Position numbers and translations under genes: made by a program. 64,000 nt of DNA from positions 60,674-124,673 of the forward strand of contig CAYYQC010000001.1 of assembly GCA_964473715.1 (NCBI GenBank). The letters are read 5' to 3'. The notes under the pieces were generated by a model that did not search any database, was not told the origin of the DNA, and saw only the letters and a program-made list of their open reading frames with translations. Within the stretch, counting starts at the first letter, position 1, and each line of letters starts with the position of its first letter. Of the stretch, positions 2,137 to 55,188 are shown in pieces. The stretch comes from an uncultured Gammaproteobacteria bacterium. GTDB taxonomy: Bacteria; Patescibacteriota; Patescibacteriia; Magasanikbacterales; UBA922.

Positions 2137-2242
2137 CCCCTTCCTAAGGGGTAGACCTAAGCGGCCAAACTAGGCCGGAGGGCTAGTTTTCTGGCCGTTT
2201 AGGCCTGTTTTCCTAGGAGAAAAGCCGTCCCCTTTAGGCTAT

Positions 2243-2270
2243 TGACAAAAAGACAGAAAAGTGCTATACT
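2243..2270 (+). promoter_or_regulatory. sigma70-like promoter, TTGACA-16/17-TATACT, upstream of the GT4 gene
   Basis: Near-consensus -35 and -10 hexamers about 30 nt upstream of the ATG at 2300. Confidence 0.5.
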
Positions 2271-2299
2271 TTGCTGTTTTATTCAAATAGCCCCCTGCT

Positions 2300-3457: not shown

Positions 3458-3469
3458 AAGATACAAATT

Positions 3470-3506
3470 TAAAAAACGCCCTGTGTAAAGCAGGGCGTTT
3501 TTTTAT
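3470..3506. terminator. bidirectional rho-independent terminator between convergent genes
   Basis: acgccctg-tgtaaag-cagggcgt hairpin flanked by an A-run and a T-run. Confidence 0.7.
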
Positions 3507-3517
3507 CGCATGTTTTC

Positions 3518-5512: not shown

Positions 5513-5540
5513 ATCTAACAGTAGATTAGCAGAAAAAACC

Positions 5541-6749
5541 TTATTGGTAAACCTGCAAAATCTGTTCTAAATGTGCTTCTAGACCATAACGCAATCGCGC
5601 TAAATCTTGTAAGGTTTTACCAGCCTCTGCACGCTCACTTGCCGCAGCCAAGTGCCACGCTAAAATTTTATCAGCTAATTCTGTACTATTGCCTGGAGCA
5701 AATAAAAATTCTTTAGGAAGCATCTCAGGAATTCCACCAATTCTACTACCAAGCACAATTCTACCCTGTGCCATGGGTTCCAAAACACTTAGTGGCGCAT
5801 TTTCATACCATACAGAAGGTGCCACCAAGATGCTGGCCTGGTCTAAAAATTCTTGCATGGCTGCGCCAGTTTTAAATCCCACCAATTCTACATTAGTTAA
5901 TTTTTGTTCAGCACAAACTGCCCGCAAGCGATTTTCATCTGGACCAGAGCCAGCAATTTTAAATGCAATATGAGGAAGTTCTTTGGCGGCCGCAAGTAAT
6001 ACATCAACACCTTTTTCTTCTGACAATCGACCGGCAAAACCTACATATTTTCCATGCCCATTACTGGTTTTTTTCACCACAGCCACAGGATTTGGAATTA
6101 CTACCACCTTATTTTTATCATATCCATGTTTGATTAATTTCCGAGCCATGAATTCACTCGGTGCAACAAAAGTATCCACGTATTGCTCGTAATATTTTTT
6201 AATTTTATGATGCCAAATCATTTCTGTTACTTTGACTGCACTATACACGCGATTATCTTTGACACATTTATTTTTTACACATGAAAAATAATACCCCTCA
6301 GCATCTTCTTCATGAATGGCGTTGTGATGAAACAAAGAATAATTTGGGCTAATTAAGTGATAATCATGCACAGTCATAACCACGCGCGCGCCAGCTTTTT
6401 TTAAAACCGGCAAAATAGCGGGGGAAATATGATGGTAGATATTATGAATATGCGCCACATCAATTTTTTCTGTGGACAATAAACGCTTGAGATTTTGTAC
6501 GGCCTCGCGGCAATAAAACATGCGGGCCGTGGCCTGTACCTTGGTAAGCAGAGATAATTGGCCTGGTTTGCCCAAGTCTAAATTTGAAACAAAATATTTG
6601 GCGTATGGCGAAGCCAATGATTGCGGCTCATGCATGGCAAAGGGGATCACTTCATGCCCATCATTTCGCAACCATTCAGATAATTGCAAAGCATAATTTG
6701 AAGCACCATCGCGGTACCAATAATATTTATGCGCTTGTAATACTTTCAT
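5541..6749 (-). CDS. family 4 glycosyltransferase (GT4)
   Basis: GT-B N-terminus MKVLQAHKYYWYRDGASNYALQL. C-terminal ENAPLSVLEPMAQGRIVL E-x7-E motif. Confidence 0.75.
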   Translation of the reverse strand: MKVLQAHKYYWYRDGASNYALQLSEWLRNDGHEVIPFAMHEPQSLASPYAKYFVSNLDLGKPGQLSLLTKVQATARMFYCREAVQNLKRLLSTEKIDVAHIHNIYHHISPAILPVLKKAGARVVMTVHDYHLISPNYSLFHHNAIHEEDAEGYYFSCVKNKCVKDNRVYSAVKVTEMIWHHKIKKYYEQYVDTFVAPSEFMARKLIKHGYDKNKVVVIPNPVAVVKKTSNGHGKYVGFAGRLSEEKGVDVLLAAAKELPHIAFKIAGSGPDENRLRAVCAEQKLTNVELVGFKTGAAMQEFLDQASILVAPSVWYENAPLSVLEPMAQGRIVLGSRIGGIPEMLPKEFLFAPGNSTELADKILAWHLAAASERAEAGKTLQDLARLRYGLEAHLEQILQVYQ

Positions 6750-6787
6750 ATGCTTCTAATTGTAACTAATTTAAGCCAAAAAAACAA

Positions 6788-8284
6788 TTGACTTGGCAGT
6801 GTAGTAGTCTTATACTTAGAGCATTAATTGTTTACATGTTCCGCCACCTGTCATTCCCCCGCTCTCTTCTTTTTATCCTGCTTACAGCTGGAATTTTTGT
6901 GATTGCAAATCCCGCCCCTGCAATTGATTTGGCAATTATTGGAGCGGCTATTTTTGCCGCAGGTTATGTGGTGCTGAAAGAAAAAATTCTTTTACTGTTT
7001 TTAGCCGCGCGTCCTGCACTTGATGTATGGCGCGATACTGTTATTGTTGGTGGCCAAAATGTGAATGCCGTGCTTGCGATTTTGTTTTTTGGTTGGGCCA
7101 TTGTCATGCTCTTTAAACACCGAGAAAAAATTGAAAAAGTGCCACTCTTAGGACTTTTTACTCTCACAGGCGGATGGTTTTTATATAGTGCCACATACAG
7201 TTTAGATCCAATCTTAAGCATAATTGAAACAGTTAAATTTTTAAATATCGGTCTTATTTTCTTCTTGTCCTATATTTTCATTAAACAGGAAATTCTTAAA
7301 CCTATTGAGATTGTCACAGCCATTGCCGCAGGCGCAGCCATTCCACTCCTCATGGGCCTCATACAAATTGTTTTCCAAACCGGTATTACTACTTTTGAAA
7401 TTCAAGACCGCATCTTTGGCACATTTGCACACCCAAATGTCTTTGCTTTTTTTGTCATGTTCTTATTATTTTTACATCATCATTACAGCACCATGTCTCC
7501 TACGGCTTTTTGGGAAAAACATCATGGATGGCGCGTGGGTATTTTTGGTATTTTAATTCTTTTGCTATTACTCACCTATACACGCGCGGCGTGGGTAGGA
7601 TTGGCCATTTACGCAGCCATGATGGCACTACTAAGTTATCGCAGACCATCACTCAAAATTTTATATGTGCTGGCTGGAATTTATGTAATTTTATTTCCAG
7701 CAAGTGACTGGCTCACTCGCAATACAGATTTTAGACCAAACGATTACCCTATTATTGCGCGTTTAACTACACGTTCAGAAGAAGCAGATTCAGTAGATTG
7801 GCGTTTAAATTTAGTACGTTCAAACTTACGCTTAATTGTAAAAGGCCCACGCACTACTCAAGGATTTGGTTATGGCACTTTCCCCATTGTTTGGGAACAT
7901 GATCGCCCAGAATCTAATGAAACAGATGATAGCGCAGAATCACATAATGATTATTTGCGTTTAGCTGTAGAAGTTGGAGTGGTTGGTTTAATCCTGTATT
8001 GCTTATTGCTGGCGCGCTTAGCCTGGATTGCAGGTCGGCTTGTACTTGCACCACCATCATCATATAAATTATTACAACACAATAAAACCACCTGGCTTCG
8101 CCGTTTCCGTGAACGTGATTTACATTTATTTTTATTTGGTTCAATTGTAGTGTTTGGCATTGTCAGTTTATCCGACAACATGTTGCATCACACACCAGTA
8201 CTTTGGATGATCTGGAGTATTTGGGGAACAATTTTGGCCGAAGCACCGTGGCGTACCAGTGGGCCGAATTTCTTAGATAATTAA
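6788..8284 (+). CDS. O-antigen ligase/polymerase-like (Wzy_C/WaaL family) polytopic membrane protein. The true start may lie downstream of 6788.
   Basis: Many TM helices. Periplasmic loop ESHNDYLRLAVEVGVVGLILY resembles the Wzy_C signature. Confidence 0.6.
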   Translation: MTWQCSSLILRALIVYMFRHLSFPRSLLFILLTAGIFVIANPAPAIDLAIIGAAIFAAGYVVLKEKILLLFLAARPALDVWRDTVIVGGQNVNAVLAILFFGWAIVMLFKHREKIEKVPLLGLFTLTGGWFLYSATYSLDPILSIIETVKFLNIGLIFFLSYIFIKQEILKPIEIVTAIAAGAAIPLLMGLIQIVFQTGITTFEIQDRIFGTFAHPNVFAFFVMFLLFLHHHYSTMSPTAFWEKHHGWRVGIFGILILLLLLTYTRAAWVGLAIYAAMMALLSYRRPSLKILYVLAGIYVILFPASDWLTRNTDFRPNDYPIIARLTTRSEEADSVDWRLNLVRSNLRLIVKGPRTTQGFGYGTFPIVWEHDRPESNETDDSAESHNDYLRLAVEVGVVGLILYCLLLARLAWIAGRLVLAPPSSYKLLQHNKTTWLRRFRERDLHLFLFGSIVVFGIVSLSDNMLHHTPVLWMIWSIWGTILAEAPWRTSGPNFLDN

Positions 8285-8492: not shown

Positions 8493-9845
8493 CTAGTTGG
8501 CCGGCGGGCTCGGCATGAGCCAGTCGTCCCATCCGCCGGGCGAGCAGATGTAGACCCCGTTGAGGTCGGCCGGCTTGGAGCCGTCGAACACCTCGTTGAG
8601 GGTCCATTTCGGGTTGATGCCCTGCGGGATGAGGGTGATGTTCGGCACCGCGCCGGAGCACAGGTTTCCCTGGCCATCGACGTTACCGCTACCGACCCAA
8701 TCCTGGGCCTCACCCTCGTGGTTCGTCACCACGTTGAAACCGAATACCTGGCCCTCGCACCAGGTCACCTCGCGTCCGAGGTTCTGCCACTCGCCGACCG
8801 GCCAGCCGTTGTTCGCATCAGCGTAGCTGACGAGACCAAAGAACTGGAACCCCTGCTTCACGCGGAGCGTGTAGCAGTTGACGGTCGGGAGAACGATGGG
8901 AGTACCGTTGCAGACGCCGGAAGCGCCGCACTGGTCGCCCGTCGTGGCGGAGTCGCCGTCGTCGCAGGTCGCGCCGACATTGATGGTTCCGCCGGCGCAG
9001 AGGCCGTTGACGAAGGTCGTTCCCTGCGTGCAGGGGTTGAAGTCGTCGCAGGTCTGCGCGGAGGGGGTCGTCGTTCCGACGCAGACGCAGGAAGCGTTGA
9101 GCCGGTCGTTGGTGGTGTTGATGTTGCCGTCGTCGCAGGATGCGCCGACGTTACAGGGCGGAGTAGGTGCCGAGTGGCAGCCCGTGCCGTCCGTGCAACC
9201 GTAGTCACACGACTTGAAAAAGTAGTCCTCCGGGACGCAAGTGCCGCTGACGCAGCTGGCCTTGGTCTGATAGAGGTTGTTGTTTTCGCACCACTGCGAC
9301 CCGGCGCCGCAGTCGGCGTTGGTGATACACTCGGGAACCGGGATCGGATCGACGTCGTCGTTGTTGATGATGACGATGGTCGTCGTGCCGTCGGCACCAT
9401 CCTTCATCGTGAAGGAGGTCCCGTCGGTGCACTTGACGATCTTGGTCCCGTCGCTGTTTGGGAATGCGGAGCAGGACGAGCCGTCGAGCCCGTCAAGTCC
9501 GTTCTTCCCGTCCGTCCCGTTCTTCACGGTGGCGGTGGTACCGTCGCTGCAGGAGATGCTGGCGCCCGTGCTGGTCTCGCTGACCATGCACGAAACGCCC
9601 TCCTTCCCGGGCACGCCCTGCGGACCGCGGCAGAGGCCGCTGTCCACGATGCAGACACCACCTTCGCCACAATCGGCGTTGGAGGTGCACTTCAGCGTCT
9701 CGGACTCGCTCTGAGGCTGAGTCGGATCGGCGCCGCAACCCGCGGCGAGGGTCATGATGAACACCACGACGAGGAAACCAACCGACTCGGTCAGCGAGGC
9801 GAACAACGCCACCTTGAAATTGCGCACGGTATCTCCATGAAGCAA
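8493..9845 (-). CDS. high-GC lipoprotein with collagen-like GxY triplets and Myxococcus-type cysteine-rich repeats (CDDGN..C)
   Basis: Lipobox signal ...FIMTLAAGC. GPQGVPGKEG and GTDGKNGLDGLDG triplets. Repeats SCDDGNINTTNDRLNASC and TCDDGDSATTGDQCGASGVC. GC-rich codons. Confidence 0.6.
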   Translation of the reverse strand: MLHGDTVRNFKVALFASLTESVGFLVVVFIMTLAAGCGADPTQPQSESETLKCTSNADCGEGGVCIVDSGLCRGPQGVPGKEGVSCMVSETSTGASISCSDGTTATVKNGTDGKNGLDGLDGSSCSAFPNSDGTKIVKCTDGTSFTMKDGADGTTTIVIINNDDVDPIPVPECITNADCGAGSQWCENNNLYQTKASCVSGTCVPEDYFFKSCDYGCTDGTGCHSAPTPPCNVGASCDDGNINTTNDRLNASCVCVGTTTPSAQTCDDFNPCTQGTTFVNGLCAGGTINVGATCDDGDSATTGDQCGASGVCNGTPIVLPTVNCYTLRVKQGFQFFGLVSYADANNGWPVGEWQNLGREVTWCEGQVFGFNVVTNHEGEAQDWVGSGNVDGQGNLCSGAVPNITLIPQGINPKWTLNEVFDGSKPADLNGVYICSPGGWDDWLMPSPPAN

Positions 9846-10373
9846 AAGTGCCGCTCTTTCACATCGTTCGCGTGTGAATAGAGGGCAAAGGTCACCTGAA
9901 CCGTAGTGTTAGGGATAATAGACACCGAATGGTGTCCAGCAGAGCCCCATCACTACGTAGATGGGGAAGAAAATATCTTAATAAAATATCTTCTTCCCCA
10001 TGGTGACCTCTTCTAGAGAGGTGCGTTATAACCTAAGCTGTAAAGAGAGGTATGTATCTCACCTTTCGGGGAGACAGTGGTACCCTGTTCTGGGCCAGAT
10101 TGTCTGGTTCAGGACAGGAGACCGCTTTAAATTTTAACTGAAAAGTATACCATTATTAGACGAATTTGTCAAGGGGGTTATCCACTCCCCTTAGAAGAAG
10201 CTCAATCACCTGGGAACCAACTATATTGATTACCAAAGGATTGAGTGGGAGCGGCTTTTCGAGCTACTCCCAGCCGTGTCGCTACCCCGTGGGCAGACCG
10301 ACTCGACTGAGCAGCAAAAAGCCACTCCCTCCCCCCTTGTGTCCCGCGCGAGCTAGCGCTGCGGGACGATGTC

Positions 10374-11342
10374 CTAGAACTTGTATTCGACCTGAAGGCC
10401 GAATTCGAACAAGCTCAGCACCGAGGCGTCCTTGAAGGACATCCCTGGCGCGATGTTTGGGTTGACTCCACCCTCACCGTAGAGGGTGAAGAGGCCAGCG
10501 TAGGCCGAGGTGGAACGCGAAAGCGCCAGCGGGCGGAACTCCGCTCGTGCGTCGATCGCGATTCCCCGAATGTCCCAGCTCCAAGCCGCATCTGGACCCG
10601 ACTGGGTCCAGCGTGCGACCAGGTAAATCCCGAAAGCTTCCCGGGCATAGCCCAGGAGCCACGAGACCTCCCCGCCGATCTTACGGCTCGTTTCCGACCC
10701 ATCGCCGGCGAGACCCATCAGGGCCCCGACGGTGACTGCCGTCCGGAAGTCGTAGACTCCCAGCTGGATACCGGCGTAGACGTTCTGGATGGAGGTGTTG
10801 CCCCCCACCAGACGGTAGCCGGTGCCGACGAGCGGCGAGATGTGAACGATGGACTGGGGCGGGGCGTCGCGGCCATTGCGAACGACCGCTCGTGTGCCAT
10901 CCTGACACTCGATGGTTGCCCCGCGCATGGTCTGGTGGACCGTACAGGACTTGCCGTCCTGACCGTTGCTTCCATCGACGCCGTCGATCCCGTCGCACCA
11001 TTCGGCCGCGGTGCCATCTCGGCACTCGAGCCGGTGGCACTTGCCATCGGTGTCCGTCACGTCGGAGATACTGCAGGAGCTCTTCGTGAGCTCCTCGAAC
11101 TCCTTGCGCTTCTTCTCGCGCGCGCGGAGGTTCCACTCCGCCCACTCCTCGCAGGAGATGGGATCGCCGTCCTGGTTCCGACCCCAGAAACCGGGGCCAT
11201 CCGCAGAACAGCAGAAGGTGGAGGTGAAGGCGCGGGACTCGCAACGGCCGACGCAGTCGGCCCCGTCGTTGCAGGTCTCCTCGGCCTGCGCGCTGAAGGT
11301 GAGGACGAGGAAAGCGAAGAAGAACATTACGAAACGAACCAT
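10374..11342 (-). CDS. high-GC secreted Cys-rich protein with a C-terminal OMP-like beta-barrel signature
   Basis: Signal peptide MVRFVMFFFAFLVLTFSAQA. Cys-rich N-terminal region with GIDGVDGSNGQDG. C-terminal alternating-hydrophobic strands ending ...LQVEYKF (terminal Phe). Confidence 0.55.
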   Translation of the reverse strand: MVRFVMFFFAFLVLTFSAQAEETCNDGADCVGRCESRAFTSTFCCSADGPGFWGRNQDGDPISCEEWAEWNLRAREKKRKEFEELTKSSCSISDVTDTDGKCHRLECRDGTAAEWCDGIDGVDGSNGQDGKSCTVHQTMRGATIECQDGTRAVVRNGRDAPPQSIVHISPLVGTGYRLVGGNTSIQNVYAGIQLGVYDFRTAVTVGALMGLAGDGSETSRKIGGEVSWLLGYAREAFGIYLVARWTQSGPDAAWSWDIRGIAIDARAEFRPLALSRSTSAYAGLFTLYGEGGVNPNIAPGMSFKDASVLSLFEFGLQVEYKF

Positions 11343-11656
11343 GGTGTTTCTCCGTGCCCAGCAGCGCTGGGCAAGTTTGGGTGTAACCTGAGTTGTACGG
11401 TACGCTTGCCCAGGGGAACCCCTAGGCTTTTGTTGTTGGTCACCGAAGTGGCCATCTCAATTCCCTTCTATACTAGATAGAAAGGTACTAAAATGGCGAT
11501 TTTGGCTAAGATTAGCGACGATTTGCCTATTTAAAAACAACAAACGAGTATAGCATTTTTTAGTGATTTTGTCAAGCCTGTTATGGATATATACCCTAAA
11601 CTAAAAACCCTCTCTTTACAAGAAGGTTTTTATAATTACCTGTTTCTAGACCATGG

Positions 11657-14600
11657 CTAATCAATCCATTTTTTTCCCCCAAACTTACCACCCACCACCC
11701 CGCCCAAAAGTCCAATGATACCTCCTACATATTTCTTCCATTTCATAGGAGTTTCACCTAGGCGTTTCATTTCTGAGTTAACTTTATCTTGTGTACCAGT
11801 ACGTTCTTTAATAAGTGAGTCTAAGATAAATTTACGCTTACCTTTTTCATCTTCTTTAAAATATTCTATTTTGCGCAGCTTGTATAACAAATTTTCCACT
11901 TCTAATTTTAGACCAGCCTTACCATTGAATTGACCAGTGAATAAAGCTACATCCAAAGTATTAATATATTCTTGAAGATCTGTATTCTTTAATTTTTCTT
12001 TTTTCTCTTCATCATCAAGCTTATCAATTGCAGCCATGTCATTAATAATTTCTTTAACCCCTTTAACCGTTTTCTTAGTTTCTTTTTTCAAAAAATCTTT
12101 AACTGTTTCTGCATCTAAGTGCGCACCAATTTCACCACCAGCAAGCATACCACTTACACCAAGAATAATACGTCTAGATAGAATAGAGGAGGTAGTAAGC
12201 GCAATACCAAGACCAATACCCATGGCACCAGATACCATATCGCCTTTACGACGCAATTCTTTGGACTTAGAACGCGCCCACATGTATTTACCTTTTATTT
12301 TATCAATCGCAATACCCAGATTACCTTTAGGGTCTGCTCTACCAGAAAACTTACCATCACGAGAACTATGCGCCTTATCTGCATCAGAATAATTTTTATC
12401 AATATCTTTTTTCATAGCAGATGCAGCGTCGCGCGAATGATTGAGTTTATGTAAATACTTATCGAGTAAAGCCAGACGTTCACCAGCAATATCACCCTGT
12501 TCATGATATTGCTCACCAATAGTATGTGCAGCTTCAATACGAAGCAAGTACAAACCAGCAGAATCACGTGGATCTAATCCCCCTTTTCTTTCTTTGGCCG
12601 AACGCTGCAAAGTGGCCTGCCGAATACCTTCAGAAAGCCAAGCAGCCATGCTTCGCATTTTATATTCATTTTTAGCTTTAATTTCTTCAAGAACTTGATT
12701 ACCAATTTTTTTCTTCTTATCAGAATCACCTTTTTTAATATCTTCTTCTCCAACATTATCAATAAATTTAACAGTGCGGTCCCGCCAACTTGTGAGCCAA
12801 CGATTGGAAAGTTGTGCGGCTGATGTAGCCATAACCACTGAAGTATCGTCATTCATTTTAAATTCATCTTCTAAATATTCTCCAGCCACCTGACCAGCTG
12901 CACCACCTGCCACAAAAATACCTAGACGCAAGCTACGTTTCTTAGCCAAACCCCAAGTTTTTCTCCAATTCATTGAGTTAAAAAAACCATCAGTCGCCTC
13001 TTCGATAGTTGTTTTTCGGTCATCATTCGCAGCTTGTTGAAAAATTGGAAATACTTCTTTCCATAAACCACGTTTCTGTTCTCCTCCTACCCACATTTCT
13101 TTAAATTGATCTACAGTAAGATTATTTTCTTTTAATGCTTGAGAAAACTTACCCATAGTAGATTTTTCATCAGCAGACTCCACTACATCTTTAAATAATT
13201 CAATGAAGGCAAGCTCAGCATCGGTCTTATTTTTAAAAATCATTTCCGATACTCCAGCTAATTTTTTACTCAAATCACCAGCTGGATTTGTGTCAGCTTC
13301 ATTAATAAGCATTTCCAAAAATACTCCAGAATCAATATTAACAATTGGTTTAGGCTCACCACCTTCAACATCTTTCCACTCAGGCTTTGGCAAAGCACGC
13401 GCGTCAGGCGCTTTTTCTTCATGATGACCATGCGCGTGTCCGTCTGCGTGTCCATGCGATTGTCCATGTGCATGACCACCACCATGACCCGCATCATGTT
13501 TGGGTGCGGCATGAGACGCAACTGTTTTGGCTGCAGGCGCAGCATGTTTTTCTTGGTGTTTTTCGGCTGGTTTTGCATGACCCTTATCGGCAGGTTTATG
13601 TGCATCAGGTTTTGCATGACTGACTGCGTGATCTGATTTATGTCCATGATCTTCACCATGACCGTGTGCAACACGCGGATAAATATTTCTATAATCCACA
13701 TGAGACATGAGTGTGTCCCAAGTATCTTGAAAATTACGAACAGTTTTAATGGCACGATTAAAAGAAGATTCAATTAAATCTTTTTCTATGTCATCGGCAT
13801 GAGCATCTTCAATTTTGTAAAGCGCAATGTATTTGGCAAAACCGCTAGCATCACCTTTTATTTCCGCCTGTACAATCTCATGACGATCATTAGGTTTTTC
13901 AGAAACAAAAGTAATGATTAAATCATGATTGGGAGCCACGGAAATAGTATCAATTTTAAAACTTGGAATAATTACTTCCACGGTTTTGCCTAAATACTCA
14001 AAAGTACCTTTTTCTTTATTTAAAACATTTAGTTTAACCGAAGACTCCAGTTCTGGTTCTTCATGATGTTCTTCATTAATTTCCTCAGCTGGAACAATGG
14101 CCACATCAGAGGTTTTTTTGGCTTTTTGCCACACTTCCATTTCTGCTCGCAAGCCTGAAAGTAACGAAGGAATTTCAGTAAGCGGCTGACCAGTTTTTGA
14201 GACCTGAGATAAACGATCAGAGAGAGCGCCATCAATTTTATAGAGAAGTTCAACCTGTGTAACTTTTTTTCCTGCAAAATGAATTATCATTGAAACATCA
14301 ATGTTGGTATTTTCATCCTTCTGCGAATAATCAAATGAAATAAAATTTTTACCTGTTTTAAGAGGAGTCTCTAATTCAAATCCATCTGGAATATCACCAA
14401 AATTTATAGTATGATCAGGATCACTTTCTAAAGTAAGACGATTGAATACCTCATCATAATCTTTAATTCCTTCCAATGATTGCAGAATTTCTTTTGATGT
14501 TTTTGGTTCGTTTTCTACACGTGGCTGTGGTGATTTTACTTCAGGTGCGATTGGAGCAGCCGCAGGTTGTGGCAAATTATCAGTAGTAGGATTGATTAAA

Positions 14601-15970
14601 TCTTTTTTAAATTGTTCAAAAAAAGCTGGCAAATTATCTACCACTGGTTTGGCGCAAATTTTGCGATAACTAACACTAGTATCATAATCCTCATCATCAT
14701 TACGTGGAGAGGAAGTAGCCGAAATAAGTTCTCCCTGCTTATTAAAATAAATTTCAAAAACCGCAGCATATTTATATGCGTTTTTTTCTGGTACTTGATT
14801 ATAAGAAAAACGAAGGTGACCATCTTCAGTACCTGCAGTCAGGGCCTGACTATTGTAAACATAATTACCAGGTACATCTTTAAAATTAATTTCCCCACCA
14901 TCTAGTTTAAGAACAGCATTTTCACTATTATATTCTTTGACACCCTTAAGTTTTTTAACAAACTCACTATCACCGCCCATGACGTCTGCAACTATTCCAT
15001 TTAAATAAACCTTAACATCTAATCTCAGATTATCTAAAGTGGTTGGTTTTGAATAGGTACTTCCCGCCCTACCGTATCTGGTAATTTGAATGTAACCAAG
15101 ATCATCTAAAGCACTGATTTCTATTCTGTTTTCTTGACCGTTAGTTATTTTTCCCAAATTTGGAGAAGGAAAATCAATCACTAAAACCGACTTATTATCC
15201 TTTTTAGTAAAGGATGTCACATAAGACATTTTTTCACCGATCAATCCTTCTGTCCATTCATTAGCCCCAGCTAATAAATCTTCTCCATTGCACTCGATAC
15301 CTTGCTCTGAAACAGAGATACCTGTGGAATTTTCAAACTCATCTTTAAGCGTAGGCGCTTCAGCTTGAATACCTTTCAATTCTTGAATTCTTTTCCAAAA
15401 AATTTCAACATTATTATCAGCGATTTTATCCAATTTTAGATTACTATAAATACCAGTTCTACTTTGCAAATACTCAAATTGCAAGGGAGTAAACTTAAAA
15501 GAATATTTTTTCAATAATGTTTTAAACTTAGACTTATTATTCTCTTGAAACAATTCAGAATCTGGTTTGATGTCTAACAATCTAATGGCAGCATCTACAA
15601 AAGCAGTTTCATCACTTTGAGTTTTTTCTGCTTCACGTTGTTTTAATAATTCTTTTCTAATTTCAAGTAAATTATTCAAACTATCATGAATAGCTTTAAA
15701 CGGCTTGCCTCCTGCTCTGGCAAGCACTTTGGCATTCTGCAGCGTTTCAACTTCATCCTTAATCAGATCAATTTCCTGAATAGTAATACTTTTTTCTGCT
15801 TCAATTTTTTGCAGCAACTCTTCAATTTCTTCATCAGAAATAGAATCAGTTTTTTTTCGGAGTTCTAAAAGCTGTGCAGCAGCGTCATTGCCTAAACGAT
15901 TTTCTAATTTTTTTTCTGAAGCCGCAACTTCTTTTTTATTCGGACCAAGCCATTTTTCAAATAATCCCAT
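11657..15970 (-). CDS. giant (1437 aa) cytoplasmic or membrane-associated protein. N-terminal coiled coil, internal His-rich low-complexity segment, C-terminal glycine-zipper amphipathic/TM segments. Function unknown.
   Basis: Uninterrupted ORF with no signal peptide. HGHGEDHGHKSDH...GHAHGHHEEK stretch. GxxxGxxxG-type segments GIGLGIALTT and GGIIGLLGGVVGGKFGG. Confidence 0.75.
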   Translation of the reverse strand: MGLFEKWLGPNKKEVAASEKKLENRLGNDAAAQLLELRKKTDSISDEEIEELLQKIEAEKSITIQEIDLIKDEVETLQNAKVLARAGGKPFKAIHDSLNNLLEIRKELLKQREAEKTQSDETAFVDAAIRLLDIKPDSELFQENNKSKFKTLLKKYSFKFTPLQFEYLQSRTGIYSNLKLDKIADNNVEIFWKRIQELKGIQAEAPTLKDEFENSTGISVSEQGIECNGEDLLAGANEWTEGLIGEKMSYVTSFTKKDNKSVLVIDFPSPNLGKITNGQENRIEISALDDLGYIQITRYGRAGSTYSKPTTLDNLRLDVKVYLNGIVADVMGGDSEFVKKLKGVKEYNSENAVLKLDGGEINFKDVPGNYVYNSQALTAGTEDGHLRFSYNQVPEKNAYKYAAVFEIYFNKQGELISATSSPRNDDEDYDTSVSYRKICAKPVVDNLPAFFEQFKKDLINPTTDNLPQPAAAPIAPEVKSPQPRVENEPKTSKEILQSLEGIKDYDEVFNRLTLESDPDHTINFGDIPDGFELETPLKTGKNFISFDYSQKDENTNIDVSMIIHFAGKKVTQVELLYKIDGALSDRLSQVSKTGQPLTEIPSLLSGLRAEMEVWQKAKKTSDVAIVPAEEINEEHHEEPELESSVKLNVLNKEKGTFEYLGKTVEVIIPSFKIDTISVAPNHDLIITFVSEKPNDRHEIVQAEIKGDASGFAKYIALYKIEDAHADDIEKDLIESSFNRAIKTVRNFQDTWDTLMSHVDYRNIYPRVAHGHGEDHGHKSDHAVSHAKPDAHKPADKGHAKPAEKHQEKHAAPAAKTVASHAAPKHDAGHGGGHAHGQSHGHADGHAHGHHEEKAPDARALPKPEWKDVEGGEPKPIVNIDSGVFLEMLINEADTNPAGDLSKKLAGVSEMIFKNKTDAELAFIELFKDVVESADEKSTMGKFSQALKENNLTVDQFKEMWVGGEQKRGLWKEVFPIFQQAANDDRKTTIEEATDGFFNSMNWRKTWGLAKKRSLRLGIFVAGGAAGQVAGEYLEDEFKMNDDTSVVMATSAAQLSNRWLTSWRDRTVKFIDNVGEEDIKKGDSDKKKKIGNQVLEEIKAKNEYKMRSMAAWLSEGIRQATLQRSAKERKGGLDPRDSAGLYLLRIEAAHTIGEQYHEQGDIAGERLALLDKYLHKLNHSRDAASAMKKDIDKNYSDADKAHSSRDGKFSGRADPKGNLGIAIDKIKGKYMWARSKSKELRRKGDMVSGAMGIGLGIALTTSSILSRRIILGVSGMLAGGEIGAHLDAETVKDFLKKETKKTVKGVKEIINDMAAIDKLDDEEKKEKLKNTDLQEYINTLDVALFTGQFNGKAGLKLEVENLLYKLRKIEYFKEDEKGKRKFILDSLIKERTGTQDKVNSEMKRLGETPMKWKKYVGGIIGLLGGVVGGKFGGKKWID

Positions 15971-15975
15971 ACCGC

Positions 15976-16170
15976 TTATTTAAACTGAGAAATCTTTTGC
16001 AAAATATTGTGCAATTCTTCTTTGTCAGAAAAATTTTGTTCTTCTACTCGAAGACGTTTCATTTCAGTGCGAATAATTTGCATTTCTTGTTCAGCTCTCA
16101 AAAGAAGGTCAATAGTATGCCTCATTTCTTGGCGTTTGGCAGCCTTATCTTGAGATTGAACAGAAATCAT
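15976..16170 (-). CDS. small coiled-coil protein (64 aa)
   Basis: Heptad-like charged sequence. A 5-nt gap separates its stop from the start of the giant gene (same strand). Confidence 0.45.
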   Translation of the reverse strand: MISVQSQDKAAKRQEMRHTIDLLLRAEQEMQIIRTEMKRLRVEEQNFSDKEELHNILQKISQFK

Positions 16171-16172
16171 AA

Positions 16173-16502
16173 TTATTTGGTGAATATTTCCCGAGATTCT
16201 TGCTTGAATTCTTCAAGTGCTTGGGCAGCTTTGACCTCATAATCTGGTACATGTTTTTTCCAAAAATCCGCCCATTCTTGTGGAGTTGGGTCACTATCGG
16301 TAAGTTCTTGAAATTCTTGAGAGGCATTAGTAGGTACAAATGGCAAAAGCGCAGCTCCCAATCGAATTTCTAAGTTATGTACAATTCCAGGCAAATATTC
16401 TGAACGCTCAGTATCATTTAAGTTATCAATTCCAAGATCAGTAAGAACTTTTTCTGCAAATTCTTCTAAAAAATATTTTGGTTCGTTGGCCATATTAGGC
16501 AC
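16173..16502 (-). CDS. hypothetical acidic protein (109 aa)
   Basis: Tight spacing or overlap with the flanking operon genes. Confidence 0.5.
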   Translation of the reverse strand: MPNMANEPKYFLEEFAEKVLTDLGIDNLNDTERSEYLPGIVHNLEIRLGAALLPFVPTNASQEFQELTDSDPTPQEWADFWKKHVPDYEVKAAQALEEFKQESREIFTK

Positions 16503-17085
16503 GAGGTTTAGAAACTATAAAGGCAGCAAGTAAGACACCAGCAATAAATCCGATCCCTGCATTCGTAATTGGATTTGGTTGTACTGGAAAGGCGGTGGCA
16601 ATTGGAGGATTAACTACTTTAAGTATAACATCACCACCCACATATTCCCAGCCTTTATCCACCAAAGTTTGTGAAAGCGCGGCCGCTAATTGACGCGCAG
16701 CGGCTGGATCTGGACGATAAGCACTAACAGAAATAATTCCAGTGTTATATACCATTGAACCTTCAACCATCTTGCTCCAAGCACGACGTTGCTGGCGCGG
16801 GGTAAGCTTGTCATAACCGCTCCAATCAAGAGTGTTTCCAGCCGTCACACGCACTTTGCGGAAAAAATCATCAGTCATCATGATTTCCACTAAATTTTCT
16901 CCCATACGTTCCGTGGATTTAATCATGGTGTACGGATCTACCCCATAACGAGTTTTTGGCATAACCAAAATCTGCGCATCTGCACGATAATTCAGTGGCC
17001 AGATAAACGTGGCGCCTGCGGAAAATACCGCGGCAATTAGTCCCATGAGAACGAGAAATTTCCAACGGTGCCAAAGTGGTGACAT
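16495..17085 (-). CDS. two-TM Wzz/CpsC-like (polysaccharide co-polymerase-like) protein
   Basis: N-terminal TM followed by a P.Y.A.A.ILV-type motif, then a C-terminal TM GIGFIAGVLLAAFIV. Confidence 0.45.
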   Translation of the reverse strand: MSPLWHRWKFLVLMGLIAAVFSAGATFIWPLNYRADAQILVMPKTRYGVDPYTMIKSTERMGENLVEIMMTDDFFRKVRVTAGNTLDWSGYDKLTPRQQRRAWSKMVEGSMVYNTGIISVSAYRPDPAAARQLAAALSQTLVDKGWEYVGGDVILKVVNPPIATAFPVQPNPITNAGIGFIAGVLLAAFIVSKPRA

Positions 17086-17101
17086 AGACAGGGGGTTAAA
17101 A

Positions 17102-18151
17102 TTATTTAGTAATAATTATTTCAATGGTTTCTTCTTGACGAAGCACGGTAGCGGTAAAACTCTCTGGCGCAAGCGTGAGCAATTCCACAAAATTTTCACG
17201 TGTCACATTTTGATTATTAATTTTTATAATTTGATCACCTACTTTAATTGGATGATTAGCCGATGCGCGGGTAATTTCAGTGATTAAAAATCCAGCTGAT
17301 TGCACAAAACCTTGTTCACTGGCGGTAAGTTCTACAAAAGTACCGCGCCAATCAAAACTCCACACTGGAATAGTTTTAGTGTTAGCGGCTAATTGTGAAA
17401 TAATTTGATTAATCATCCACACGGGAATAATTTTTTGCTCTGGCGCAGAAAAACCCACAAATTCGCCGCGGTCAGTAATTAATACTTGTTGTGATTTACT
17501 AAGTTCACGCAAAGTGTAAACAGTTTTATCCACTGACACTGTAGAAATTAAACCACTCGGCATCACAGGTTCATCAATAGTGGCCAAATGCCAATCTGAA
17601 CTTCCGCTCCAAACTAAACGGCCAGGCGTAAGCGCATTTAAACCAGCAAATACAGTGGTAGAACGAAAATTCGCGCCACTAAATTTAATATATACTAATT
17701 GTCTTTCAGGATCAGGAATAAATCGTTCCACCGCTAATCGTTGACCCTGGTAATCAGTACCTACTAATGAGGCTTTATTAAAAGCAGTTGACCATGGTGC
17801 TACACTCCAACCTCCTGCATTTACAATTACTGCAGTCGTAAGACGCGCGGTTTCAGGAAAATATTTTTTATTCACGGCTTTATTTTCATCGTAAACCGCA
17901 ATTAAACGCGGACGCCAATCTCGCACAACATTTGAATCTAGTACTGGACGTGTAGATGCGCGTGGAGCAGCATATTCTGCGCTAGAAGTAAGACCAGTAG
18001 GATACCAAGCATTAATCATAAGCAAGGCACCTACTGTGCCAGCTGCTAAACCACTAATAACTGCAATAATAAGCAATAATAAACGCTGCATATAATTATG
18101 ATGCGGCACTGAACAGGCGGGTGGCGGCAGATGTGGCGGAAATTGTTTCAT
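17102..18151 (-). CDS. membrane-anchored PDZ-domain protein (HtrA-like architecture but no GNSGGP catalytic motif seen)
   Basis: N-terminal TM. C-terminal PDZ-like IKVGDQIIKINNQNV... Confidence 0.55.
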   Translation of the reverse strand: MKQFPPHLPPPACSVPHHNYMQRLLLLIIAVISGLAAGTVGALLMINAWYPTGLTSSAEYAAPRASTRPVLDSNVVRDWRPRLIAVYDENKAVNKKYFPETARLTTAVIVNAGGWSVAPWSTAFNKASLVGTDYQGQRLAVERFIPDPERQLVYIKFSGANFRSTTVFAGLNALTPGRLVWSGSSDWHLATIDEPVMPSGLISTVSVDKTVYTLRELSKSQQVLITDRGEFVGFSAPEQKIIPVWMINQIISQLAANTKTIPVWSFDWRGTFVELTASEQGFVQSAGFLITEITRASANHPIKVGDQIIKINNQNVTRENFVELLTLAPESFTATVLRQEETIEIIITK

Positions 18152-18915
18152 AAAAACCTAAGAATAGAGAGGAAAAAACCAAACAAAACAGCGTTGATTA
18201 CTAAAAATTTACGCTGTTTAAACCAAATGATATCACGATTACCAAAATGAAATCTCATGAGCAATTGTAAAACATACCAGAGCCACGTAATAATAAGTGC
18301 GCCAGCCAAATATCCAATTGAACTTAAACCAATAATTAAACTAGCCTGACCAATTAACACTCCCATTACAGAGAGTGGCACAAAATAATCTTTTAATCGA
18401 GCTTGAAAATATAATGACCATAATAAAAAGCTGGCAAGAGTGGCAAATCCAGCTTGAATAAATGGACTAATAATTGTGGTAAATGTGCTGGGGAAAAAAA
18501 CCACGCGCGCTTCTATGAATGCGCAGAATCCAAATAATGCGAGTGCAAGTGCCGCAGACACAGCGCGACGAAGTGGTTTTTCACGCACAAACACAATGGG
18601 TGCGGCCACACGTCTACTCCATAACATTATTACCGTTGCACCAAGTACACCCAAAGTAGTAATTAAAACTAAAGCCGAAGGCCACTCCACCACCACAAAG
18701 AGTGAGAGCAAACCAAGTTCACTAAATCCATATAACCACCAAAAAAAATGTCTAACACCAGCATGACTAACTATAAAATATAAAATCGCACCAAGAATAA
18801 TAAAGGTTGGCACTAATGCCCACCACTGAAATTGAAATAAAACAACGGCACCAAAAAAAGCGGCCGTGATTGTGGCTACCAAAAATAAAGCAAATTTTTC
18901 ACCAAATTTTATCAT
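18148..18915 (-). CDS. polytopic integral membrane protein, function unknown
   Basis: About 8 hydrophobic helices. 4-nt overlaps with both neighbours. Confidence 0.6.
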   Translation of the reverse strand: MIKFGEKFALFLVATITAAFFGAVVLFQFQWWALVPTFIILGAILYFIVSHAGVRHFFWWLYGFSELGLLSLFVVVEWPSALVLITTLGVLGATVIMLWSRRVAAPIVFVREKPLRRAVSAALALALFGFCAFIEARVVFFPSTFTTIISPFIQAGFATLASFLLWSLYFQARLKDYFVPLSVMGVLIGQASLIIGLSSIGYLAGALIITWLWYVLQLLMRFHFGNRDIIWFKQRKFLVINAVLFGFFLSILRFL

Positions 18916-19394
18916 ACAGCCGCCACTGCGGTTTGGAGTTTTTTAATGATTTCTTTCCAGGCAGTTATTTTTTCCTCGTCAGATTTTTTAGGGTCAGTAT
19001 TGGTAAACTCAAGCGCGGCTTTGAGATGCGCGTCGCGAGCATTTTCTGGAACGCGAACCAAAAAGAAAAAATCATTTAATATTTTTGACGCTTTGGCAGC
19101 AGTAATGTTTGACTCCATATTTGATTCCATATCAGCAGCCACCACCGCCAACTCACTTTGATATGAAGAAATAATTTCGGCCGGGGTACGTTCAGGGGGC
19201 AGAGTTTCCACTGGCTGATTGCTTAATGAGTCAGGTAATACTTGGCGAAAGCGTGGCCAAGCTATAATGGCCACAATAACAAAAGTAAAAATCACACCAG
19301 CCATAAGGAAGTGTGGAACTTTTGAATGAGTAGATAAATCCATAGAGATAAAATAATTGTCCGTAGTATACCGTATAGAGGGGGTAAGTTGCAA
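18912..19394 (-). CDS. single-TM membrane-anchored protein (160 aa), first gene of the operon
   Basis: TM segment MAGVIFTFVIVAIIAW. Charged C-terminal domain. Confidence 0.5.
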   Translation of the reverse strand: MQLTPSIRYTTDNYFISMDLSTHSKVPHFLMAGVIFTFVIVAIIAWPRFRQVLPDSLSNQPVETLPPERTPAEIISSYQSELAVVAADMESNMESNITAAKASKILNDFFFLVRVPENARDAHLKAALEFTNTDPKKSDEEKITAWKEIIKKLQTAVAAV

Positions 19395-19430
19395 AAAATC
19401 GCTAACTCACCTATTATTACTCTAGTTTTT

Positions 19431-19874
19431 ATGCCCACCTTAGCCCGAAACCGACGTGCCAGTTTTGATTATGAAATCCTTGAAAAATTTGAGGCTGGCT
19501 TAAAATTGAGTGGTTCTGAAGTAAAATCAATCCGTGGTGGACATATTTCCTTGGCCGGTGCTTTTGTAACTTTCCGCGGTGATGTACCATTTTTGACCAA
19601 TGCGCATATTCCAGCCTATCCTTTTGCCCAATATCCAGCTGGTTATGAACCCACCCAATCTAGAGAGCTTTTATTAAAAAAGAAAGAAATCGCTTATTTA
19701 CGCGAAAAATTGCAAGAAAAGGGATTGACAGCGCTCCCTTTGTCCGTGTATACTAAACAGCGCTATCTTAAGCTAGAAATTGGTATTGGCCGAGGCAAAA
19801 AAGCCTTTGACAAAAGAGCCAGTATCAAAAAACGTGAAAACGAGCGAGAGATACGCAGAGAACTTAACAGTTAA
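19431..19874 (+). CDS. smpB: SsrA-binding protein SmpB. The start is probably the internal Met (MPTLARNRRASFDYEIL), not the ORF-track start at 19389.
   Basis: Conserved FDYEILEKFEAGLKLSGSEVKSIR... and the basic C-terminal tail. Confidence 0.9.
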   Translation: MPTLARNRRASFDYEILEKFEAGLKLSGSEVKSIRGGHISLAGAFVTFRGDVPFLTNAHIPAYPFAQYPAGYEPTQSRELLLKKKEIAYLREKLQEKGLTALPLSVYTKQRYLKLEIGIGRGKKAFDKRASIKKRENEREIRRELNS

Positions 19875-19880
19875 CATTAC

Positions 19881-20272
19881 GGGGATGACAGGCTTCGCTA
19901 GGTGGAGCTTGTTACTGTAATTAGGCATGTCGGCCGCACCGCCGTTAGAGGTGCACAAGTAATAAGTGCCAACTTATTCAACCAGGTGAAGACAGCTGTT
20001 GCTCGCGCATTCAGCCCTTCATTTGCTCCTGCTCTCGCTTAATCGCCTGTAGCCATCACTCTTCTGAATCCTAATAAGAAATCAGTGGTGCCAACCCATT
20101 GGGATATACCAGCTTCTCCAATCAGAAGTGAGCTGGAAGAACTTGGCTCTGATTTAGGATGCTGATATTTTGTCGCTTTTTCACCAGTGTCCGAAACAAC
20201 AAAGCTGGCTACACATGTAGATTAATTCTGTAACCCATCTATACCCGAGTTCAATTCTCGGCATCTCCACCA
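19881..20272 (+). ncRNA. ssrA: tmRNA (ssrA)
   Basis: Begins GGGGATG and ends CATCTCCACCA, giving a 7-bp acceptor stem with a G.U pair at the third position. T-arm CCGAG-TTCAATT-CTCGG. Internal tag reading frame ...ANLFNQVKTAVARAFSPSFAPALA-TAA. Lies immediately after smpB. Confidence 0.85.
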
Positions 20273-20289
20273 TTAGTTTTATATTTTGT

Positions 20290-20838
20290 ATGCGCATATC
20301 CCGCAAAAAACGCCCAGAAAAACCGCTTATAGCGGCAGTTAAGAAAAATCTTGAACTCGATTACCCAGAAACTTTGGTAATTGGTGAGGACAATAAAAGT
20401 CTCGGTATCATGACAGTACGTGCAGCTGTAGCCCTAGCGGAAGAACGTGGTTTGGACTTAGTTGAAATTAATCCTAAAAGTACTCCACCTGCTACCAAAT
20501 TGGTAAATTACTCTGAATTTAAATATCAGAAAGAAAAAGAAGCACGTAAGCAAAAAGCACATTCTCATACCAGTGACATCAAAGGTATTCGATTGTCAGT
20601 GCGTATTGGTGAACATGATTTGAATAACAAACGCGAACAGGCTAAAAAATTCTTGGATCGTGGCGATAAAGTTAAACTGGAATTAATTGTACGTGGCCGT
20701 GAACACGGTAAAATGGATTTAGCCAATGAAATTATTCGTGATTTCATCGCGGCAATAGATGCTATTATGCCAATTCGCCAAGAGCAAGAAGTACAGAAAC
20801 AGGAACACAAACTTACATCTATTATTGCCAAGAAATAG
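20290..20838 (+). CDS. infC: translation initiation factor IF-3
   Basis: LDLVEINPKSTPPATKLVNYSEFKYQKEKEARKQK and LELIVRGREHGKMDLA match the IF3 N- and C-domains. Confidence 0.9.
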   Translation: MRISRKKRPEKPLIAAVKKNLELDYPETLVIGEDNKSLGIMTVRAAVALAEERGLDLVEINPKSTPPATKLVNYSEFKYQKEKEARKQKAHSHTSDIKGIRLSVRIGEHDLNNKREQAKKFLDRGDKVKLELIVRGREHGKMDLANEIIRDFIAAIDAIMPIRQEQEVQKQEHKLTSIIAKK

Positions 20839-20866
20839 CCCCTCAAGCTATACACAATTTAAACCC

Positions 20867-20895
20867 TTGACGAAAGTCAAATTACCCTATATACT
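20867..20895 (+). promoter_or_regulatory. sigma70-like promoter, TTGACG-17-TATACT, upstream of rpmI-rplT
   Basis: Hexamers with a 17-nt spacer, about 20 nt upstream of the rpmI start. Confidence 0.5.
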
Positions 20896-20913
20896 AGCGC
20901 AACAAATCTTGAT

Positions 20914-21117
20914 ATGACGATGAAAACCAACAAAACCATTGCCAGCCGCTTTACTATCAAAAAGTCAAAAAAGCATGGCAAAAAATTGCTGAAACGGGCT
21001 AATGGCCAAGACCATTTTAATGCTCGCCAAAGCAGTGACACTCGCCGCCGCAAACGCCGCGATGTGACCATGACTAAAACGCTGGAAAAGACTATTTTCC
21101 GCGCCATGCCTTACTAA
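20914..21117 (+). CDS. rpmI: 50S ribosomal protein L35
   Basis: KTNKTIASRFTIKKSKKHGKKLLKRANGQ...RRRKRRDV...PY matches the bL35 pattern. Confidence 0.8.
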   Translation: MTMKTNKTIASRFTIKKSKKHGKKLLKRANGQDHFNARQSSDTRRRKRRDVTMTKTLEKTIFRAMPY

Positions 21118-55185: not shown

Positions 55186-55188
55186 ACG

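Follow-up and report, generated by a model that had tools for sequence, protein, structure and literature searches.

A conserved seven-gene operon of membrane proteins, small soluble proteins and a variable giant protein in Candidatus Magasanikbacteria

Several described bacterial systems share single components with the locus treated here, a seven-gene operon that ends in a giant protein of 1437 amino acids (aa) and lies on a 64,000-nucleotide stretch of contig CAYYQC010000001.1, called the window below. HtrA-family proteins such as DegP, DegQ and DegS have protease and PDZ regions; DegS has an N-terminal membrane anchor, faces outward and recognises outer-membrane proteins, whose barrel-like C-terminal ends are bound by DegS-type PDZ domains. 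Members of the Wzz/CpsC family of polysaccharide co-polymerases (PCP) have two transmembrane segments around an external domain and form oligomeric rings. The polymorphic LXG toxins of type VIIb secretion have small helical targeting partners, the Lap proteins. Helical modules that insert into membranes are represented by the T domain of diphtheria toxin, the pore domains of colicins and the bilobed hydrophobic hairpins of chlamydial Inc proteins. A described system with the composition of the operon was found neither in Pfam, NCBIfam, PADLOC, PHROGs and the PDB sequences nor in the PDB and BFVD fold libraries or the literature, in agreement with a preliminary description of this DNA, which had recognised none. 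The operon is thus undescribed and as a system matches nothing known, and its function, as discussed here, is what we infer. Of the seven proteins, two can be assigned to known families as divergent members, g1, g2, g6 and the giant have no known family, and g5 matches only the uncharacterised DUF5663.

The open reading frame (ORF) listing places seven ORFs, g1 to g7, from 19343 to 11657, all on the minus strand (which holds for all operon features given below), where the preliminary description had put a tightly packed unit. In the public records, all seven products are annotated as hypothetical. The g1/g2 and g2/g3 junctions are 4-nt ATGA overlaps, as had been described, but two gene starts in the earlier list of junctions were wrong. 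The most likely start of g1 is the ATG at 19343 (143 aa; public product KAZ30_00265) and not the TTG at 19394, and that of g5 is the ATG at 16493 (106 aa; public product KAZ30_00245) and not the GTG at 16502. The longer TTG and GTG versions were not found in the public collection, in which the corrected products are present. Since g5 starts at 16493, the 8-nt overlap claimed for g4 and g5 becomes a 1-nt gap. The other gaps obtained with the corrected starts are 16 nt for g3/g4, 2 nt for g5/g6 and 5 nt for g6/g7. A promoter-like site upstream of g1 (19365-19394, TTGCAA-18-TATACT), assigned by consensus match only with 9 of 12 positions matching, sits in the divergent intergenic region shared with smpB and the transfer-messenger RNA (tmRNA) gene. 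About 25 nt past the stop codon of the giant lies a terminator-like hairpin (11602-11632) with a 13-bp stem, an A-run on one side and a U-run on the other, and a minimum free energy z-score of -2.2. It was not listed by the consensus scan; we take it as the end of the operon. The tight spacing, the ATGA overlaps, the promoter-like site and the hairpin together make the seven genes look like one transcription unit. Paralogues of g2-g6 were not found elsewhere in the window. The tmRNA gene (19881-20272) adjoins smpB and was the only Rfam match between 8000 and 20400 at a relaxed threshold; its predicted tag peptide, ANLFNQVKTAVARAFSPSFAPALA, is long for a bacterial tag.

The order of the genes is identical in all 11 distinct related loci that could be retrieved, always beside smpB. 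The common arrangement is a divergent smpB followed by g1 (139-162 aa), g2 (255 aa), g3, g4, a DUF5663 protein, a protein of 63-69 aa and a giant of 1378 to 3173 aa. The overlap of g2 and g3 is kept in each of the eight loci that hold this junction, and the gene for the 63-69-aa protein occupies the g6 position in ten loci. A chance juxtaposition of the seven genes is ruled out by the conserved order and the conserved overlap, and the loss of synteny that would have spoken against a single unit was not observed. Two deviations were found. One lineage (locus L002) has no g1, and in the most divergent locus (L013, GC 0.50, g3 31% identical) DUF5663 is replaced by an unrelated gene of at least 172 aa (1820-2335), so this adaptor position can be refilled. 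For g3, 21 homologues with 31-100% identity were found. The cluster is rare: pattern-based scans, which miss distant relatives, gave three loci among 185,579 species genomes and three in JGI metagenomes, and none among 2.9 million viral contigs. Those of the 11 loci that carry a taxon name all belong to Candidatus Magasanikbacteria, and the operon is vertically inherited and confined to a subclade of this group of ultra-small, uncultured organisms within the Patescibacteria, or candidate phyla radiation (CPR). The window itself stems from a metagenome-assembled genome of the same group (Patescibacteria/Parcubacteria). Contig CAZFKS010000003.1 (L004) carries a full operon of the Magasanikbacteria type by smpB, yet its label reads uncultured Gammaproteobacteria bacterium. 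A mistake in binning or labelling is the probable cause, to which the GC-rich stretch described below may have contributed.

The genes of the operon evolve at two different rates. Between the window and locus L001, the housekeeping proteins L20, IF3 and SmpB are 96%, 95% and 93% identical. The membrane proteins g2, g3 and g4 are close to these values with 85%, 86% and 94%, whereas g1, g5, g6 and the giant share only 54%, 56%, 44% and 28% of their residues. The same gradient was seen in the other genome pairs. On this basis, the operon consists of a conserved membrane set and a fast-evolving set comprising g1, g5, g6 and the giant. This split, the modular build of the giant and the constant neighbourhood of secreted-protein genes with GC-rich third codon positions were not visible from the sequence of the window alone.

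The composition of the membrane genes is as the preliminary description had listed it. The fast-evolving g1 (18912-19343, 143 aa) has one transmembrane segment at aa 9-27 and a C-terminal domain of about 115 aa. The polytopic g2 (18148-18915, 255 aa) has eight, possibly nine, hydrophobic segments; no Pfam match was obtained even at an E-value of 10, and no sequence relative was found in the PDB. In alignments, two basic loops of g2 are invariant, WSRRVxAPIVFxREKPLRR and RFHxxxRDIxW, and by the positive-inside rule they are predicted to face the cytoplasm.

The protein encoded by g3 (17102-18151) is membrane-anchored, with an HtrA/DegQ-type protease-like region and a PDZ domain. A family profile built from 20 homologues matches DegQ (6z05) with an E-value of 3.4e-9, aligning aa 103-316 of the query to residues 64-294 of the chain, and it also matches DegP PDZ domains with E-values of about 1e-7. 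The single-sequence Pfam match to PDZ reaches 21 bits, just under the threshold of 23.2. Like the HtrA proteins, g3 therefore aligns across both the protease and PDZ regions, and it shares with DegS the N-terminal membrane anchor and the predicted outward orientation. In contrast to the family, its external domain has no invariant serine or histidine: among the 20 homologues no serine is invariant, the residue aligned to the serine of the GNSGG motif varies between S, P, A, E and T, and the only invariant histidine is H7 in the cytoplasmic tail. This tail of 23 aa, cytoplasmic by the positive-inside rule, carries the invariant motif PHLP (P6-H7-L8-P9) and, together with the coupling to the orphan polytopic protein g2, further sets g3 apart from known HtrA proteins. 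The alignments thus identify g3 as an HtrA-family protein without a conserved catalytic triad, as had been proposed, and it is probably a binder rather than a protease.

The best conserved gene of the operon is g4 (16495-17085, 196 aa), which encodes a Wzz/PCP-type protein with transmembrane segments at aa 10-28 and 173-191. It resembles the PCP family in its two segments around an external domain, its N-terminal Wzz match and a proline-rich stretch ahead of the second segment. The match to Pfam Wzz (PF02706) scores 25.5 bits, which equals the threshold, and 26.3 bits for the L002 orthologue. However, the external domain is very short with 144 aa, and the scores are far below the cut-offs of the CpsC/MPA1 and XrtA-type subfamilies, with 31 bits over the full length against 296 for TIGR01006 and 16.7 bits against 279 for TIGR03007. 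No solved Wzz protein was matched when the g4 profile was compared with the PDB sequences, and the operon contains no polymerase, flippase or kinase partner.

Two small soluble proteins are encoded between the membrane genes and the giant. The first, g5 (16173-16493, 106 aa), is acidic with a pI of 4.4, has no transmembrane segment and matches PF18908 (DUF5663) with 27.9 bits against a gathering score of 23.7. DUF5663 was found at the g5 position in eight related loci; three matches are poor, being weak in ERZ27296333 and L008 and below the cut-off in L002. A PDB sequence search with g5 gave no match, and no paper mentioning DUF5663 or describing this cluster was found in a literature search. 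The second, g6 (15976-16170, 64 aa), is charged and looks helical or coiled-coil. In its layout, the arrangement recalls that of the LXG toxins and Lap proteins, in that a large, modular and fast-evolving protein without a Sec signal is directly preceded by two small, soluble and helical ones. The giant also starts with a helical region as the LXG toxins do, but its constant part is central or C-terminal instead of N-terminal. No Pfam or NCBIfam match to an EssC/FtsK-type ATPase, a WXG100 protein or an LXG domain was obtained in the operon or the rest of the window.

The giant g7 (11657-15970, 1437 aa) has no signal peptide, and an N-terminal hydrophobic signal is absent from ten orthologues, which also share no terminal motif. 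This bears out the preliminary description, as do the long N-terminal helices of the structure model and the glycine-zipper segments near the C-terminus. No Pfam, NCBIfam, PADLOC or PHROG family and no PDB sequence match was found for it, and a word-indexed homologue search with the whole protein returned only the protein itself. When its C-terminal 568 aa were compared exhaustively with 1.84 billion representative proteins using phmmer, three relatives were found, all of them giants of the same operon. Dynamin-like, SMC-like and toxin families had been named beforehand as placements that would speak against a new kind of protein. No profile or fold match pointed to any of them, the highest TM-score being 0.11 with low-confidence models.

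According to a low-confidence AlphaFold2 (AF2) model and the comparison of orthologues, the variable head comprises aa 1-732 (13775-15970). The model, computed from three sequences with a pLDDT of 50.9, suggests long helices over aa 1-216 followed by four small beta-rich domains at about 225-310, 344-422, 502-584 and 647-732. Internal repeats could not be detected by sequence in the head. It is collinear only with the closest relatives, such as P0024 at 27% identity, and other lineages have unrelated heads and C-terminal extensions. Downstream of the head, a histidine-rich tract covers aa 768-852 (13415-13669). The preliminary description had called the whole protein His-rich, which holds for this tract of 85 aa with 25% histidine but not for the rest of the protein with 1.2%. 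In 7 of 11 giants (window, L001, L005, L008, L009, P0024 and L014), such a tract directly precedes the constant module.

The constant module (aa 870-1437, 11660-13363), delimited by alignments of five and four orthologues, is the sole part common to all orthologues. It comprises about 570 aa, is predicted to be all-helical and contains the motif RSMAAWLSxxLR. The number of its Gly/Ala-rich zipper segments is three to five across orthologues, and one forms a tight hairpin; in the window giant the segments lie at aa 1013-1031, 1246-1264, 1268-1286 and 1414-1432. Scored with position-independent values of the biological hydrophobicity scale, the zipper segments have +2.2 to +6.5 kcal/mol compared to -2 to +2.5 for the transmembrane segments of g1-g4, which makes them only marginal candidates for ordinary Sec-type insertion. 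Basic residues flank them, with KKRSLR before the first segment, SRR inside the hairpin and GKKW after the last. The AF2 model of the module, built from four sequences, consists entirely of helices (pLDDT 59.8, predicted TM-score 0.59). Fold searches with the module against the PDB and the viral library (BFVD), and with the head against the PDB, gave no meaningful match, with TM-scores of about 0.1. All matches of the module had E-values above 0.2, those in the viral library above 0.26, and the two matches of the head below 0.001, both to nuclear-pore proteins, had TM-scores of only 0.07-0.08. Due to the low confidence of the models, this negative result carries little weight.

The module resembles the known membrane-insertion modules in being all-helical with paired, weakly hydrophobic, Gly/Ala-rich segments, and by analogy the histidine-rich tract ahead of it could act as a pH or metal switch. 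However, it matches none of them in sequence or fold and is much larger, with about 570 aa and three to five hydrophobic segments. In one lineage, a described effector domain was found. The L002 giant (12572-21061; Magasanikbacteria RIFCSPHIGHO2_01_FULL_41_23) matches WipA_Phos (PF21663) with 67 bits at residues of about 1000-1316, its metal-binding motifs GDxHG, GDxxDRG and NH(D) are intact, and its closest solved relatives are the Legionella Dot/Icm effectors WipB and WipA (5nny, 5y9o), which are PPP-type phosphatases. The domain is absent from the window giant and from nine other giants scanned, and the window showed no type IV secretion ATPase.

A further comparison is with the giant surface proteins of CPR bacteria, e.g., of Vampirococcus (PMC8080830), which are likewise very large, membrane-associated and lineage-specific. 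Typical representatives have signal or pilin-like N-termini and Ig-like repeats, whereas the giant of the operon is mostly helical, has no signal peptide and is accompanied by six dedicated, conserved partner genes. The window also contains a second giant gene on the minus strand (43756-57444). Its product of 3809 aa and a neighbour of 751 aa both begin with a T4SS_pilin domain followed by Big_5 Ig-like domains, and two genes downstream carry bacterial TSP3 repeats. This second giant is of the more typical CPR surface kind.

The reading that we tentatively favour, as possible though still short of probable, is that a conserved membrane platform with co-evolving adaptors inserts, anchors or exports the polymorphic giant. 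The platform would be formed by g2, g3 and g4, which are found together in the operon and are presumed to assemble. Here, g2 would provide a cytoplasmic docking face, g3, translationally coupled to it, would be an outward-facing binder unable to cleave, and g4 would form a ring-type oligomer as its family does. The variable one-segment protein g1 would be an accessory component. Co-evolving with the giant, g5 and g6 would bind it in the cytoplasm as its adaptors or chaperones, and the constant module would then be docked by the platform, which would help to insert, anchor or export it. The variable parts of the giant would thereafter exert their effect at the envelope of the cell or on a partner cell, be it a host, a competitor or a phage. 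CPR giant membrane proteins are thought to mediate host attachment (PMC8080830). Gene content, conservation and the pattern of rates are observed features of the loci, while the contacts between the proteins, their topology and the direction in which transport would run in this scheme are inferred from them.

Several points weigh against this reading. The operon encodes no ATPase or other energy source, the 64-kb window showed none either, and no recognisable secretion signal occurs in the giants. A resident membrane protein whose large N-terminal part lies in the cytoplasm would agree just as well with the charges next to the hydrophobic segments, and the phosphatase domain is present in only 1 of 11 giants. 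In addition, weak constraint and not an arms race could be the reason why a helical protein of partly low complexity diverges so fast. Both structure models, derived from three to four sequences, have low confidence.

An alternative, which we consider doubtful but take seriously, is that the giant is a resident scaffold on the cytoplasmic face. The preliminary description had likewise suggested membrane remodelling or a scaffold, stress or cell-surface assembly as possible roles. The giant would be anchored by its zippers in the cell's own membrane with a head of about 1000 aa in the cytoplasm, and together with g1-g4 it would shape, remodel or stabilise the envelope, be it during division, in response to stress or to curve the membrane, with low constraint as the cause of its fast evolution. 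The lack of a signal peptide, the N-in pattern of the basic flanks (KKRSLR, SRR, GKKW) and the placement of the conserved g2 loops and the g3 tail on the cytoplasmic side agree with this. The locus is also chromosomal among housekeeping genes, with ftsA and ftsZ in the same window, and histidine-rich tracts are common in cytoplasmic metal-binding proteins. However, for a structural protein, an identity of 28% is unexpected while its partners are at 85-94%, as are the swaps of head domains and the gain of a WipA-like phosphatase. Furthermore, orthologues differ in how many hydrophobic segments they have, so no one fixed topology fits them all.

The combination of a fast-evolving giant and two fast-evolving small partners with conserved membrane sensor parts would also suit a role in conflict or defence. 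In this case, g3 and a g4 ring would sense envelope damage caused by a phage or competitor and signal via g2 to the cytoplasmic giant, whose zipper module would permeabilise the membrane. Glycine-zipper motifs are typical of pore formers, and the enzymatic head is variable. We nevertheless regard this as unlikely. The fixed place beside smpB in every genome does not correspond to a variable island, and no nuclease, NTPase or other usual defence domain was detected in the Pfam and NCBIfam scans. A known anti-phage defence system was rejected, as PADLOC-DB v2 gave no matches for nine proteins at an E-value of 0.01.

Another alternative starts from the Wzz/PCP signature of g4, which would then be a true chain-length regulator working with g2 and g3 on a surface glycan, with the giant as a cytoplasmic organiser or ruler. 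In the window, 3-10 kb downstream of the operon, genes for a Wzy_C protein, two glycosyltransferases of family GT4, a GHL15 protein and a polyprenyl synthase are indeed present, the Wzy_C gene at a distance of about 8 kb. However, the operon itself has no polymerase, flippase, glycosyltransferase or tyrosine kinase, and in L001, whose sequence extends furthest past the giant, the approximately 1 kb available on the far side of the GC-rich island contains an NYN gene and no glycan gene. The small external domain of g4 and its missing match to solved Wzz proteins do not fit a true regulator either, and the hypervariable giant is left unexplained. Envelope glycan assembly is therefore held to be improbable.

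A phage or mobile-element remnant, with the giant as a tape-measure-like protein and the two small upstream genes as its chaperones, is very improbable and already close to refuted. It would draw on a superficial resemblance, since the giant is long and helical, has Gly-rich hydrophobic stretches and follows two small genes, and on the tape-measure proteins among the non-significant viral fold matches. Against it stand the missing PHROG matches for the giant, g5 and g6, the viral fold matches at TM-scores of about 0.1, the absence of relatives in the viral contigs and the fixed chromosomal place among housekeeping genes without flanking phage genes, and a prophage tape measure was rejected.

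Beyond the giant, the operon has unusual neighbours. In all seven loci with sequence there, the next 2-4 kb are GC-rich, with 0.53-0.71 compared to about 0.40 for the genome. One to three genes in this stretch have a GC content at third codon positions (GC3) of 0.72-0.95 (0.58 in L007), in contrast to 0.23-0.36 for all other genes measured, including those for L20, IF3, FtsZ and pyruvate kinase. In the relatives, the GC3-rich genes lie at 10.2-14.1 kb in L001, 16.5-20 kb in L004, 8.0-10.9 kb in L005, 16.8-18.4 kb in L007, 12.3-13.4 kb in L008 and 11.9-14.8 kb in L009. Their products are Cys-rich and secreted or lipoprotein-like, collagen-like, DUF7151 or TSP3 repeats occur in some of them, and the orthologues share only 24-48% identity. 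An assembly chimera was considered as the source of the GC-rich stretch and is unlikely, since it recurs in seven independent assemblies joined to native promoters.

In the window, two such units were identified on the minus strand. The gcB unit (10374-11575) has a promoter at 11547-11575, a leader at 11343-11546 and a gene at 10374-11342 for a secreted Cys-rich protein of 322 aa (GC3 0.81) that ends in EYKF. The gcA unit (8493-10172) has a promoter at 10144-10172, a conserved structured leader of about 300 nt and a gene at 8493-9845, whose start is uncertain, for a lipoprotein-like Cys/Gly/Thr-rich protein (GC3 0.86). Each has its own near-consensus extended -10 promoter, TTGACAAA-N-TGnTATACT. 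The leaders of 200-300 nt are far better conserved than the proteins that follow and, over long stretches, near-identical from genome to genome (window 11343-11575 and about 9800-10172; L001 10200-10430 and 11618-11960; L009 11952-12181 and 13346-13690). In the hairpins of the two leader types, compared over three sequences each, 4 and 14 base pairs are changed on both sides. These compensatory changes are suggestive of, but do not prove, a conserved structure. Rfam gave no match to the leaders, which may represent a cis-regulatory element of a new kind or serve as an anchor for recombination.

The gcB-type proteins (window 10374-11342; L001 10431-11378; L009 12182-13108) have a Gly/aromatic-rich C-terminal region of about 150 aa and end in an aromatic residue, any residue and phenylalanine (EYKF, GHQF, EWLF). 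By eye, these C-termini look like small outer-membrane beta-barrels, a feature that one would not expect in a CPR bacterium; a Pfam or PDB sequence match was not obtained for the region. As separate transcription units, gcA and gcB constantly accompany the operon and may be part of the same biology. Beyond the GC-rich island, positions 1060-8284 of the window hold the polyprenyl synthase, the two GT4 genes, a secreted GHL15/FG-GAP protein and a Wzy_C-type ligase or polymerase, and these glycan genes could be a partner for the Wzz-like g4.

A more far-reaching version of the platform reading, which we consider a long shot, would join the operon and its GC3-rich neighbours. In it, a previously unknown envelope machine without an ATPase would take up the polymorphic giant, devoid of a Sec signal, via two co-evolving adaptors, deliver or insert the glycine-zipper module into a membrane, possibly that of a host, and work together with the adjoining secreted proteins of foreign codon usage. 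By analogy with DegS, the inactive HtrA/PDZ protein g3 might then recognise the barrel-like C-terminal ends of these neighbours with their aromatic-x-Phe motif.

Caution is advised for all of these readings, as every inference is drawn from sequence and lineage-restricted clusters of hypothetical genes are common in CPR genomes. The neighbour genes pose a separate question, namely how a foreign-looking codon usage, with GC3 above 0.8 behind native promoters and conserved leaders, persists in a small AT-rich genome whose GC3 is about 0.25-0.35. The CPR, or Patescibacteria, account for much of bacterial diversity, and a life on other cells is assumed for them. To our knowledge, apart from pili, almost nothing is known of the molecular tools of this lifestyle. 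The locus described here is a clean, conserved and experimentally approachable candidate for such a tool, combining a fixed membrane platform with a hypervariable giant whose constant module is predicted to be membrane-active, and to which at least one lineage has added an effector-type phosphatase. If it is true that the platform handles the giant, this would be a new way of placing or exporting very large proteins that relies on neither a Sec signal nor a recognisable ATPase.

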